Notes under the pieces: generated by a model
What the model saw: the letters and a program-made list of their open reading frames with translations, nothing else
The model's database searches: none
Told to the model about the DNA's origin: nothing
Position numbers and translations under genes: made by a program
Assembly: GCA_037481695.1 (NCBI GenBank)
Contig: JBBFLE010000002.1
Span: 16,661 to 80,660 of the forward strand
Direction of reading: 5' to 3'
Length of the DNA: 64,000 nt
DNA from: a bacterium
GTDB lineage: Bacteria; Desulfobacterota; Desulfocorpusculales; Desulfocorpusculum
Part shown: positions 54,860 to 57,331 of the stretch, piece after piece
Layout of the letters: the number at the start of each line of letters is the position of its first letter
Numbering within the stretch: the first letter of the stretch is position 1

Positions 54860-55711
54860 TCATGCTTGTTCCAGCAATTTTCCAAGCCCCACAGAACCCC
54901 AAAGGGATCCAACGCACAAGAAGGCTCCCTTTATCACCCCCTTGGCCCTCAAGCTCTCGGCCCTGGCAAGTCCCTGCTCTAGCCCCTTTGAGGCCACCTC
55001 CCTGGGCAGCTCCCCAACCCTGAGGGTCACCTCAAGCCCTGCTATGTCTGAATCAGGATCCAGTTGCTCGGCTCTTACCCTTTCCACCTGCTGGCAGGGC
55101 ACCCACGTGGCATTGGCCACGGCAGTAGCTGCCGCATCGGCTACAGAAGCTCTCTGGGCAAGTACTGTGGCCGACCAGGCTATACCCCGGGTCAGGCTCC
55201 TGCCTCCAAGACCGCTTGTGGCCACCCCCCAAGAGGGACTTGACCCCTCAAGCCTCAGGCGATGGGTGAGTCTGCCCTTTTCCACTCTGGGACGAATGCC
55301 CACCGCCACAGTCTCCCCCTGGGTAAGTCTCAAGGCTACATCTCCTCCGTTTTCCACGATCACCCTTGTCATTCCCCGCCCAGCCAGAAGGTCTGCAACA
55401 CTGTCTGCTATGGTGCCTGCCACAGATGCCATGGGTGTCAGGTCCGGATCCCCTACCATGGCAACACTCTCCCACATGGCCCTCCCCAGGTACTGCAGCC
55501 TCTCTTTGCACACAGAGCCCCATGGATCTTTGAGCAGGTAGCGGTCGGCTGACACCTGCTCCAAGAAGCCAATGGACTCTCCTGCTGCCCTGATAGCCTC
55601 TTGGGGCTGGGCAAGCCTGCCCACCCAGGCCCAAATCCTGAGCCGCATGGGGCCACACTCGGCCAAGACCGAGCCATCCCCCAATAAGGTGCTGATCTGC
55701 TCATAGCCCAT
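54860..55711 (-). CDS. ApbE-like / UPF0280-family protein (possible flavin transferase-like)
   Basis: 283 aa containing GMTRVIVENGGDV and a GVATSGLGGRS motif resembling the ApbE-superfamily ATSG box. Assignment tentative. Confidence 0.5.
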   Translation of the reverse strand: MGYEQISTLLGDGSVLAECGPMRLRIWAWVGRLAQPQEAIRAAGESIGFLEQVSADRYLLKDPWGSVCKERLQYLGRAMWESVAMVGDPDLTPMASVAGTIADSVADLLAGRGMTRVIVENGGDVALRLTQGETVAVGIRPRVEKGRLTHRLRLEGSSPSWGVATSGLGGRSLTRGIAWSATVLAQRASVADAAATAVANATWVPCQQVERVRAEQLDPDSDIAGLEVTLRVGELPREVASKGLEQGLARAESLRAKGVIKGAFLCVGSLWGSVGLGKLLEQA

Positions 55712-55825
55712 TTGGTTGCAGAAGAAATCTTTCCTGGGAGTCCTTCCCAGCTTGCTTTTTTTAGTTCTCAGGTGCTTTATAGCCTGGAGCTGTTTCCCAG
55801 GAGCTTACCACTCTGTGCTTGAAGT

Positions 55826-57331
55826 CTACCTCATCTTCACCTCAAAAGGCTTCATTGCCTCCACATGCCCGCCTATTTTCTGGTAATCGCTCAGAAGCAT
55901 GGTGTACTCAATGGGGCAGATGGTGGCTGGAGTGGGAGTCCAGTAAAACGCCCCCTGCTTCACCCTCTCTACGTCAACCATGAAACTTATGCCTCCTCCA
56001 GGAAGCACAAAGGTAGGAGCCCCTCCCACCGTCAGGTTGGCCTTTCGGGCATGTACGGCCTGAGTCAACTTGATGGGATACCGGCTCACCCCGGCCCTGG
56101 CACTTCCCCCTGCTCCCCCCATGTAAAGGGCCGACACACGGGAAGGTTCGCAGCTGGAAGCCACAGCCTCCACGACATCCCTGGCCAGGGCTGTCAGTTC
56201 CACCTCCTCCAGTTGGCCTCTGGCATTCACCTGAAACATCACGGCCTTTTCCCCGGTTGTCTCTGTGACCAATATCCTCATGCCAGGCCAGGCCACCTTC
56301 ATGTCCAGTTCCTTGATGACCTCCCTGGGATGAACAATGGAGGTCCCTCCCCACCCTGAACCATGGTCTCCGAAATACCTGCCTGGAGTCGATTGTTTGA
56401 ATCGCAGCTTTACCCCGGTGGGCTTCACGCCCACAAACCTTCCGGCAGCATGCTCACTCATGAGGCTTGTGAGGTGGGAATCCAGGACTATCACCTCATC
56501 GGCCGCCTCTTTGAACAGAGGCGCAAAAAGCCCCATGGTGGCGCTTCCGCAGCCAACCCTCATTCTGGAGCTCTCTTGGCCGTTTACCACCGGAGGGAAG
56601 CCCACCCTGATCTCCAGCCTGGCTCCTCCCTCCACCTGGAGTTTCACGGCCCTGCGATTGGCTATCTCACACATGGTTCGCGCCACCACCATGCCATCGG
56701 GGCCTGTAAGCAGATTCACACCCCCTATGGAGAGCATCTTGGAGCCGTACTGTTCTGTGGTCACATGGCCCACCACTTTCTTCCCCACCTTTACCCTGGC
56801 TCCCTCTTGCCCAACAGGCAGATCCGTGTCCACCTTTACCAAAACCGAGCTGTAGCTGAGGGGGGCTTCGGTGACCACCGTCACAACATCCACCCCCTGC
56901 ACCTTCCCATGGAGGATATGGGGGGCAGGCCTGCAGTCAGGATATGTGGTCCCAGCTCCTATGCCAGTAACCAGAGGCTTTCTTATCTCCTCGCTTATAT
57001 CCTCCCCCACCACCTGAGCCACTTCCTCAAAGCCGTGAAGAGGAACCACTCTGACCAGAGATCCCTCCTGGTTACGATACCTCTGGCAGGCCCCCAGGAA
57101 GCCTTCCTTGATCCGACACCCCACAGGGCATGCCTCACATGGTACAGAGCCTTCAGGCACCTCTGCCGGGAAATCCACGGCCTCTTGAGGACAGACTCTC
57201 TTGCAAGCCCCACAGAAGCTGCATCCCTGTCCCACCCTGGCCTTTCTGGATCTTATTTTGATGACCCCCAGGGAACATGCCAGCACGCATTCTCCACAAC
57301 CAATGCACTTTTGCTCATCAACTATCATCAT
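55826..57331 (-). CDS. 4Fe-4S dicluster-domain protein; candidate 6-hydroxynicotinate reductase-like enzyme (function tentative)
   Basis: Start at MM (57331/57328), preceded by GGAGG. N-terminal 2x[4Fe-4S] ferredoxin motifs (CIGCGECVLAC, CSFCGACKRVCP) and a further Cys cluster (CEACPVGC), then a ~400-aa domain with no motif I can name. Track ORF to 57520 overlaps the upstream gene and has a non-protein-like prefix. Confidence 0.55.
   Translation of the reverse strand: MMIVDEQKCIGCGECVLACSLGVIKIRSRKARVGQGCSFCGACKRVCPQEAVDFPAEVPEGSVPCEACPVGCRIKEGFLGACQRYRNQEGSLVRVVPLHGFEEVAQVVGEDISEEIRKPLVTGIGAGTTYPDCRPAPHILHGKVQGVDVVTVVTEAPLSYSSVLVKVDTDLPVGQEGARVKVGKKVVGHVTTEQYGSKMLSIGGVNLLTGPDGMVVARTMCEIANRRAVKLQVEGGARLEIRVGFPPVVNGQESSRMRVGCGSATMGLFAPLFKEAADEVIVLDSHLTSLMSEHAAGRFVGVKPTGVKLRFKQSTPGRYFGDHGSGWGGTSIVHPREVIKELDMKVAWPGMRILVTETTGEKAVMFQVNARGQLEEVELTALARDVVEAVASSCEPSRVSALYMGGAGGSARAGVSRYPIKLTQAVHARKANLTVGGAPTFVLPGGGISFMVDVERVKQGAFYWTPTPATICPIEYTMLLSDYQKIGGHVEAMKPFEVKMR

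Follow-up and report, generated by a model that had tools for sequence, protein, structure and literature searches.

Is the protein encoded beside an iron-sulfur reductase the enzyme that attaches the flavin of that reductase? This question is raised by two neighbouring genes on the reverse strand of a 64,000-nucleotide (nt) stretch of DNA from a member of the Desulfobacterota (assembly GCA_037481695.1, contig JBBFLE010000002.1, positions 16,661 to 80,660), the whole of which is referred to herein as the window. The upstream gene encodes a 4Fe-4S reductase of 501 amino acids (aa), assigned below to 6-hydroxynicotinate reductase (Hnr, EC 1.3.7.1), and the downstream gene encodes a 283-aa protein of the UPF0280/DUF375 family with the fold of ApbE, the flavin adenine dinucleotide (FAD):protein flavin mononucleotide (FMN) transferase. 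A first-pass annotation, made from the letters alone, had placed an ApbE-like gene directly downstream of the reductase gene and had read the two as a possible maturation and substrate pair, should the reductase carry a covalent flavin; both open reading frames (ORFs) are indeed present on the same strand, with 114 nt between them. Because it almost always lies directly after the Hnr gene, the UPF0280 protein is the best candidate for the enzyme that attaches the covalent flavin of Hnr. A putative dedicated maturation pair is well supported by gene context, and it would be of a non-canonical kind.

Linkage of the two genes

The linkage between Hnr and UPF0280 was observed in three collections. 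First, the scan of GTDB, in which one genome per species was searched with an alignment of UPF0280 proteins, returned 412 loci, the best 80 of which all belong to the Desulfobacterota, the closest being metagenome-assembled genomes (MAGs) of Desulfarculaceae. Upstream DNA of at least 1.7 kilobases (kb) was available for 63 loci; in 60 of these, Hnr is the immediate upstream neighbour on the same strand, and the ends of the tblastn matches are a median of 43 nt apart. Second, a metagenome scan anchored on a diverse alignment of Hnr yielded 80 loci of 34-67% GC, in which Hnr is 46-66% identical to that of the window; where at least 1 kb of downstream DNA was available, UPF0280 lies directly downstream of Hnr in 62/67 loci, elsewhere in the locus in 3, and is missing from 2. 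Third, UPF0280 adjoins Hnr on the same strand in every one of the Hnr plasmids of PLSDB (26/26; Alpha- and Betaproteobacteria, Hnr identity 42-47%). The pair is thereby kept in about 150 independent loci from several phyla, and the adjacency is far beyond chance.

The adjacency is kept in three cluster types, namely low-GC fermentative, Desulfobacterota and proteobacterial clusters, among which the positions of the enamidase and DUF1185 genes vary. In Sagittula, a ferredoxin-NADP reductase gene is followed by Hnr, UPF0280 and two copies of DUF1185, with overlapping stop and start codons. In a metagenomic contig of 34% GC (L094, SWCH01001618.1, 1-13488), Hnr and UPF0280 are 3 nt apart within a complete fermentative nicotinate cluster of the Eubacterium barkeri type, which includes enamidase, DUF1185 and the lower-pathway genes for an aconitase small subunit, a B12 mutase, a PrpF isomerase, a MutL-type reactivase and a PEP-mutase/ICL-family lyase. 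In the same contig, a Cache-domain ORF and an MCP-signalling ORF sit between UPF0280 and enamidase, and these two possibly form a nicotinate chemoreceptor.

The loci that depart from this arrangement are few. Pairing is lacking in L029, where an IS110 transposase and unrelated genes are found upstream of UPF0280, in L057, L106 and L118, and in an orphan copy from Hydrogenophaga; furthermore, L058 is rearranged, UPF0280 is divergent and about 3.5 kb from Hnr in L084 and L085, and the order is reversed in L150. The Hydrogenophaga copy is carried by the sole PLSDB plasmid with UPF0280 and without Hnr, pBPS33-1 of Hydrogenophaga sp. BPS33 (L082). There, the orphan (8917-9849) immediately follows an IS1071 transposase and sits within a duplicated block that holds genes for a Rieske oxygenase, a TTT transporter and a PDR oxidoreductase. 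Four UPF0280 matches are present in the record; the orphan looks like the remnant of a disrupted nicotinate cluster carried by a composite transposon. Two apparent Hnr-UPF0280 fusions were rejected, one (P0391, 654 aa) as an assembly duplication and the other (P0324, 755 aa) as a frameshifted, read-through high-GC call.

Across the same loci, identity ranges from 43-75% for UPF0280, compared with 54-84% for Hnr, 59-89% for enamidase and 55-91% for DUF1185. UPF0280 is the least conserved member of the module, a pattern that suits an accessory factor. The DUF1185 gene directly follows UPF0280 in 47/74 loci; in 11 of the remaining 27, it is found at another place in the locus. DUF1185 is a third constant member of the module, seen also in L081 (11413-12572) and L094 (11833-12432), with tandem copies in Sagittula.

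Identity of the reductase

The 501-aa protein is an Hnr orthologue, as judged from its homologues and neighbours. More than 8000 close homologues were found, several of which are named 6-hydroxynicotinate reductase by JGI or NCBI; one homologue (P0001, 500 aa) is 100% identical to the window protein, MAG-derived proteins, including some called Hnr, are 62-85% identical, and the RefSeq-annotated Hnr proteins of proteobacterial plasmids are 42-47% identical over 84-92% of the length. The arrangement with an enamidase and a molybdenum (Mo) hydroxylase recurs across loci. In scans of Pfam and NCBIfam, only the N-terminal ferredoxin motifs were matched, and no curated Hnr profile in either library matched the protein. 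For the catalytic region of about 400 aa, no match to solved structures and no recognisable flavoprotein fold were detected. The start codon is placed at a conserved ATG at 57331 (protein beginning MMIVDEQKCIGCGECV); a longer reading to 57520 was rejected, since it overlaps the upstream amidohydrolase gene and is not found in homologues.

Two CxxCxxCxxxC motifs are formed by Cys 9, 12, 15, 19, 37, 40, 43 and 47 (Pfam Fer4, E 4.5e-8), and a third four-Cys group consists of C65, C68, C72 and C82. Both the C9-C47 set and C65/68/72/82 are conserved among Hnr homologues, and the pattern fits two predicted [4Fe-4S] clusters and one further cluster. The E. barkeri enzyme is said to have been described in 2006, by Alhapel and co-workers, as a ferredoxin-dependent protein with one [2Fe-2S] cluster, two [4Fe-4S] clusters and a covalently bound flavin, the attachment route of which was reportedly left unexplained.

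The electron-input module of Hnr is exchangeable, because elsewhere it is replaced by a fused NADPH module, or the ferredoxin domain is missing and a ferredoxin-NADP reductase gene lies nearby. Two proteins (P0242, 982 aa; P0247, 969 aa) are real fusions of Hnr with a GltD-like Fer4_20 plus Pyr_redox_2 NAD(P)H module. The proteobacterial Hnr proteins do not have the N-terminal 2x[4Fe-4S] domain, and in Sagittula (L081, 8078-8905) the ferredoxin-NADP reductase gene adjoins hnr.

Family and fold of the 283-aa protein

The 283-aa protein belongs to a family for which a literature search (UPF0280/DUF375) found no function assigned to any member. The protein identical to it in sequence (P0121) is named "UPF0280 family protein" by NCBI, and in current annotations its relatives in the family go by the names "UPF0280 family protein", "hypothetical protein" or, without evidence, "FAD:protein FMN transferase". 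The best of the four UPF0280 models of NCBIfam is NF003322, with 208.7 bits against a cut-off of 290 and an end-to-end alignment (residues 7-269 on profile positions 6-271 of 295). The Hnr-linked homologue of Sagittula passes this cut-off (332 bits), and the five other Hnr-linked homologues tested all match NF003322 best and at full length (5/5). The three other models (NF003321, NF003323 and NF003324; 238-250 positions) match only the core of the Hnr-linked proteins. The Hnr-linked proteins thus seem to belong to a single clade, the one that NF003322 matches best.

The ApbE fold is established by structure comparison. In a PDB sequence search, the sole relative was 2O34 (DVU1097, a hypothetical protein described as Pfam DUF375; E 3e-9, about 25% identity). 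The AlphaFold2 (AF2) model of the protein has a predicted local distance difference test (pLDDT) score of 95, and Foldseek placed 2O34 first (E 3.5e-12), followed by nearly all of the ApbE, FmnB and Ftp structures, including 7esc, 6nxi, 2o18, 3pnd, 4xgv, 5mgy and 4ifu (E about 1e-5, probability 1.0, TM score 0.45-0.55). Inspection of the N-terminus revealed neither a signal peptide nor a lipobox. Taken together, the sequence and the modelled fold indicate that the protein is an ApbE-fold member of UPF0280/DUF375 and not a canonical ApbE, and it is probably a Mg2+- and nucleotide-dependent cytoplasmic enzyme.

Active-site residues and candidate attachment sites

The correspondence of residues with ApbE was drawn from one hhalign alignment to E. 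coli ApbE/Ftp (probability 76%, E 2e-5) and from residue spacing. The ATSG-type motif pointed out in the first-pass annotation, GVATSGLGGRS, is present and aligns with the TSG motif of the E. coli protein, S166 falling on the TSG serine. D192 and T196 align on the Asp and Thr of the segment A-D-A-W-D-T, and R175 aligns on the His of "RLSHVIDP", which is taken to be the catalytic His of ApbE. R171 follows S166 by five residues, as in Ser257-Arg262 of FmnB and S240-R245 of Ftp_Tp. Because the spacing from the serine is identical, D192 and T196 are taken to be the putative Mg2+-ligand positions (D284 and T288 of Ftp_Tp), and R171 to be the position of FmnB Arg262 and Ftp_Tp R245. In an alignment of 69 diverse Hnr-linked UPF0280 proteins, 30-51% identical to that of the window, N121-G-G-D124, S166, R171, D192, T196 and D222 are invariant, so the residues of the metal and nucleotide site are conserved.

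Ser, His and Asp have been described as the only well-conserved residues of the ApbE catalytic centre, the His being proposed as the general base, and in Ftp_Tp no residues other than the Mg2+ ligands D284 and T288 proved critical for the transfer of FMN. The Ser-His-Asp centre (S241, H257 and D285 of the Vc enzyme) is not reproduced in the window protein, in which S166 and D192 are present and the His is replaced. ApbE-like chemistry is plausible for this set of residues.

On the side of the reductase, conservation was determined from an alignment of 156 diverse Hnr sequences. T477 is invariant, and Ser or Thr is strictly kept at 151, 154, 330 (in a G-[WY]-G-x-[TS] loop) and 434. C261 is present in 155/156 sequences, and Y195 is invariant; autocatalytic links to the isoalloxazine ring are known for both residue types, among others. 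H294 and T128 were rejected as flavin sites, since both vary in distant members of the family. In the Hnr proteins without an adjacent UPF0280 (L106 and L118), no telling substitution at conserved residues was found, and the attachment site is not narrowed by them.

The operon and its surroundings

The genes of the locus are listed in Table 1. The operon is one of anaerobic nicotinate catabolism in a Desulfarculaceae-like bacterium, with an upper pathway as in E. barkeri (nicotinate dehydrogenase, Hnr and enamidase), an assignment made because an enamidase orthologue adjoins Hnr, a Mo hydroxylase lies upstream, and homologues of Hnr are so named.

Table 1. Genes of the nicotinate operon in the window and the basis of their assignment
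Feature	Position	Strand	Basis or remark
DUF1185/"amino acid synthesis" protein	54262..54858	-	Pfam PF06684 E 7e-75; PDB 2qtp (uncharacterized) E 5e-74
UPF0280/DUF375-family protein, ApbE fold, 283 aa, cytoplasmic	54860..55711	-	candidate Hnr-specific flavin-attachment factor
Hnr orthologue (501 aa)	55826..57331	-	N-terminal ferredoxin domain, third Cys4 site and catalytic region of ~400 aa
Enamidase orthologue (hydrolyses 1,4,5,6-tetrahydro-6-oxonicotinate)	57366..58535	-	PDB 2VUN E 4.3e-147; Pfam Amidohydro_1, Amidohydro_3
Three-subunit xanthine-dehydrogenase-family Mo hydroxylase, nicotinate-dehydrogenase-like first step	58483..62178	-	Pfam, NCBIfam
Mo hydroxylase, Mo subunit	58483-60816	-	Pfam MoCoBD_1/2, Ald_Xan_dh_C
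Mo hydroxylase, FAD subunit	60806-~61666	-	Pfam FAD_binding_5/CO_deh_flav_C
Mo hydroxylase, 2Fe-2S subunit	61663-62178	-	Pfam Fer2_2/Fer2
Isochorismatase-family hydrolase, operon head	62175..62930	-	Pfam PF00857 E 6e-25

On the reverse strand, the order is aldehyde dehydrogenase, isochorismatase-family hydrolase, Mo hydroxylase, enamidase, Hnr, UPF0280, DUF1185 and a DinB-family protein. The aldehyde dehydrogenase gene (63072-63983, reverse strand) lies upstream of the isochorismatase-family gene, and its substrate may be 2-formylglutarate; the isochorismatase-family protein may be a nicotinamidase that feeds nicotinate into the pathway. The gene of this protein and that of the 2Fe-2S subunit overlap by 4 nt. 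The matches of the Mo hydroxylase subunits to NCBIfam models of the xanthine dehydrogenase family are all below the equivalog cut-offs. The enamidase aligns end to end with the structure 2VUN, entitled "ENAMIDASE" (window residues 3-386 against 1-384).

In the interval between hnr and UPF0280 (55727-55760, reverse strand), a 7-bp inverted repeat (CTGGGAAGGACTCCCAG) followed by a T-rich stretch was observed 24 nt 5' of the UPF0280 start, and no clear Shine-Dalgarno sequence precedes the UPF0280 ATG. The inverted repeat and T-rich stretch may attenuate or lower the expression of UPF0280 relative to hnr. The junction sequence places the start of DUF1185 probably at ATG 54858 or 54840, that is, 1-19 nt past the UPF0280 stop codon.

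Elsewhere in the window (46904-51662, forward strand), one gene encodes a 1044-aa protein in which a thioredoxin-like 2Fe-2S domain is fused to a NuoF-like FMN/4Fe-4S module and a GltD-like Fer4_20/Pyr_redox_2 module; it is directly followed by the genes for a DUF5981 (methylenetetrahydrofolate reductase, MTHFR, C-terminal) protein and for an MTHFR. These genes look like an unusual NAD(P)H-linked methylene-tetrahydrofolate reductase system.

Discussion

Herein, we propose that the UPF0280 protein is a dedicated maturation factor that would install the covalently bound flavin of Hnr. In this proposal, the UPF0280 protein would bind FAD-Mg2+ and move the FMN moiety, with adenosine monophosphate (AMP) leaving, to a conserved Ser or Thr hydroxyl of Hnr, with a Lys or Arg standing in for the histidine of ApbE. 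The candidate targets would be T330, the invariant T477, T151, T154 and T434, at a site differing from the canonical ApbE motif. In the matured enzyme, electrons would pass from reduced ferredoxin through the three Fe-S clusters to the flavin, or, in some lineages, would be delivered by a fused NADPH module or a neighbouring ferredoxin-NADP reductase; Hnr would reduce 6-hydroxynicotinate to 1,4,5,6-tetrahydro-6-oxonicotinate, and the neighbouring enamidase would open this product. That the UPF0280 protein is a maturation factor of Hnr of some kind seems probable. The more specific statement, transfer of FMN from FAD-Mg2+ to a conserved Ser or Thr of Hnr, is given about an even chance; the identities of the two proteins, the fold, the conservation of the site and the linkage are shown by the comparisons above, and from these we infer the flavin transfer, the bond type and the target residue.

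Several results weigh against this proposal. First, the match to the Pfam ApbE family (PF02424) reaches only 24.3 bits, below the gathering score of 25.6, and covers residues 96-176 only, and a profile search against the ApbE chains of the PDB was marginal (E 0.03-0.2). Second, the catalytic centre is altered. Position 175, an Arg in the window protein, is Lys in 54, Arg in 6 and another residue in 8 of 68 homologues, no His-rich column is found among the 69 aligned sequences, and the 11-residue segment "DPQTGRPIEHN" of the E. coli protein (the "IDPxTGxP" loop) is deleted. Third, neither a strict nor a relaxed search of Hnr found the motif D-x-x-[ST]-G-A-[ST], for which the first-pass annotation had suggested looking, and neither FMN_bind nor any other domain known to be an ApbE target was detected in Hnr. 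Fourth, the covalent flavin is a reported feature of the E. barkeri enzyme, and a literature search found no paper in which hydroxynicotinate and covalent flavin are combined; if the flavin were bound to Cys261, Tyr195 or another residue via the 8-alpha or C6 position, the bond would escape an explanation by FMN phosphotransfer. Fifth, synteny alone has no power to single out UPF0280, as DUF1185 is equally constant, and relatives of UPF0280 occur in organisms without Hnr (DVU1097/2O34 and the three other NCBIfam subfamilies), so the family is not restricted to this partner. Thus, the ApbE-like label of the first-pass annotation holds for the fold, the putative Mg2+-ligand positions, the serine and the arginine but not for a canonical FAD:protein FMN transferase; on alignment, S166, R171, D192 and T196 are invariant, and the catalytic His has given way to Lys or Arg. 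Likewise, the idea of a dedicated maturation and substrate pair is supported by the cross-phylum gene linkage and the identity of Hnr but finds neither the canonical motif nor a known ApbE target domain in the reductase.

The loss of the catalytic His and the absence of the canonical target motif from Hnr would also suit another explanation, in which UPF0280 is needed for Hnr maturation but is no FMN phosphotransferase. Instead, it would be a flavin-insertion chaperone or FAD-handling factor that aids an autocatalytic isoalloxazine link to Cys261 or Tyr195, as SdhE/SDHAF2 does for SdhA, or it would insert some other cofactor. The gene linkage speaks for this role as much as for FMN transfer, and the near invariance of Cys261 and the invariance of Tyr195 are consistent with such a link. 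However, no variation at all is seen at the putative Mg2+ ligands, the TSG serine or the arginine, which argues for retained pyrophosphate chemistry, and the ApbE fold is found in no known 8-alpha flavinylation chaperone. We consider a chaperone role unlikely.

In another explanation, UPF0280 is a stoichiometric subunit of Hnr or an additional enzyme of the pathway, which might use 6-hydroxynicotinate or the tetrahydro-oxonicotinate product as substrate or might work jointly with DUF1185 or enamidase. The constant presence of UPF0280 in one operon with Hnr, enamidase and DUF1185, and its frequent translational coupling to its neighbours, are compatible with this role. However, UPF0280 adjoins Hnr specifically across the three cluster types, and it is less conserved than Hnr, enamidase and DUF1185, which is more typical of an accessory factor. 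Nine enzymes are said to account for the E. barkeri pathway in full, and Hnr was reportedly purified as the product of a single gene, which also counts against this explanation. A subunit or pathway enzyme is therefore regarded as rather improbable. Finally, an adjacency without functional meaning, that is, an ApbE-like housekeeping gene unrelated to hnr and beside it by coincidence, could appeal to the few unpaired loci but is effectively refuted by the synteny counts (60/63, 62/67 and 26/26), two of the orphan copies adjoining transposases (IS110 in L029 and IS1071 in Hydrogenophaga), and its probability is close to nil.

If flavin transfer by UPF0280 is correct, what would be new is the enzyme family, its altered catalytic centre, the lack of a canonical motif and an unprecedented target fold, whereas the logic of a dedicated ApbE is already familiar. 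The near-obligate pairing ties the covalent flavin that Hnr reportedly carries to UPF0280/DUF375, a family with a crystal structure (2O34) since 2006. Enzymatic flavinylation would then no longer be confined to the canonical ApbE/DxxSGAT system but would also take place in the cytoplasm of anaerobes and on a target of new fold; a practical recipe for active recombinant Hnr would be at hand, and the automatic annotations of UPF0280 could be corrected. In a wider form, we hypothesize tentatively, and with some doubt, that UPF0280/DUF375 is a second, hitherto unrecognised class of cytoplasmic protein-flavin transferases, in which the NF003322 clade would flavinylate Hnr via Lys or Arg at a non-canonical Ser or Thr in a domain of new fold, the other subfamilies, which occur in sulfate reducers and probably in archaea, would act likewise on further redox enzymes of the cytoplasm, and DUF1185 may be a third component.

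Comparison with known systems

The canonical ApbE, Ftp and FmnB enzymes (EC 2.7.1.180, PF02424) share with the UPF0280 protein the fold, the TSG serine, the Arg five residues on and a D-x-x-x-T pair at the Mg2+-ligand positions. They differ in that UPF0280 scores below the Pfam gathering threshold, has Lys or Arg in place of His, has lost the 11-residue loop and carries no lipoprotein signal, and in that its putative target, Hnr, has neither the DxxSGAT motif nor known target domains. Cytoplasmic ApbE proteins dedicated to soluble fumarate reductases do exist, and fusions of an ApbE domain with its target are also known. Within UPF0280/DUF375 (PRK04334), 2O34, the DVU1097 protein of Desulfovibrio vulgaris, is the best match of the window protein in both sequence and structure, but the two are only about 25% identical, and the window protein falls below the cut-off of NF003322, a model that is longer (295 positions) than the three other UPF0280 models (238-250).

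The concept of a small accessory protein needed for the covalent flavin of one specific oxidoreductase is shared with SdhE/SDHAF2. The fold and chemistry are unrelated, as SdhE aids the autocatalytic formation of 8-alpha-histidyl-FAD and has no nucleotide or Mg2+ site.

The first three enzymes of the E. barkeri nicotinate cluster (Ndh, Hnr and enamidase) are also those of the window operon, in which the enamidase is nearly identical to 2VUN in length and alignment; the Cys pattern of the window Hnr provides for three Fe-S clusters, and low-GC full fermentative clusters also carry the Hnr-UPF0280 pair. In contrast to the E. barkeri cluster, the Mo subunit of the window is unsplit (777 aa), the lower pathway (B12 mutase and others) is absent from the window operon, and the host is a member of the Desulfobacterota.

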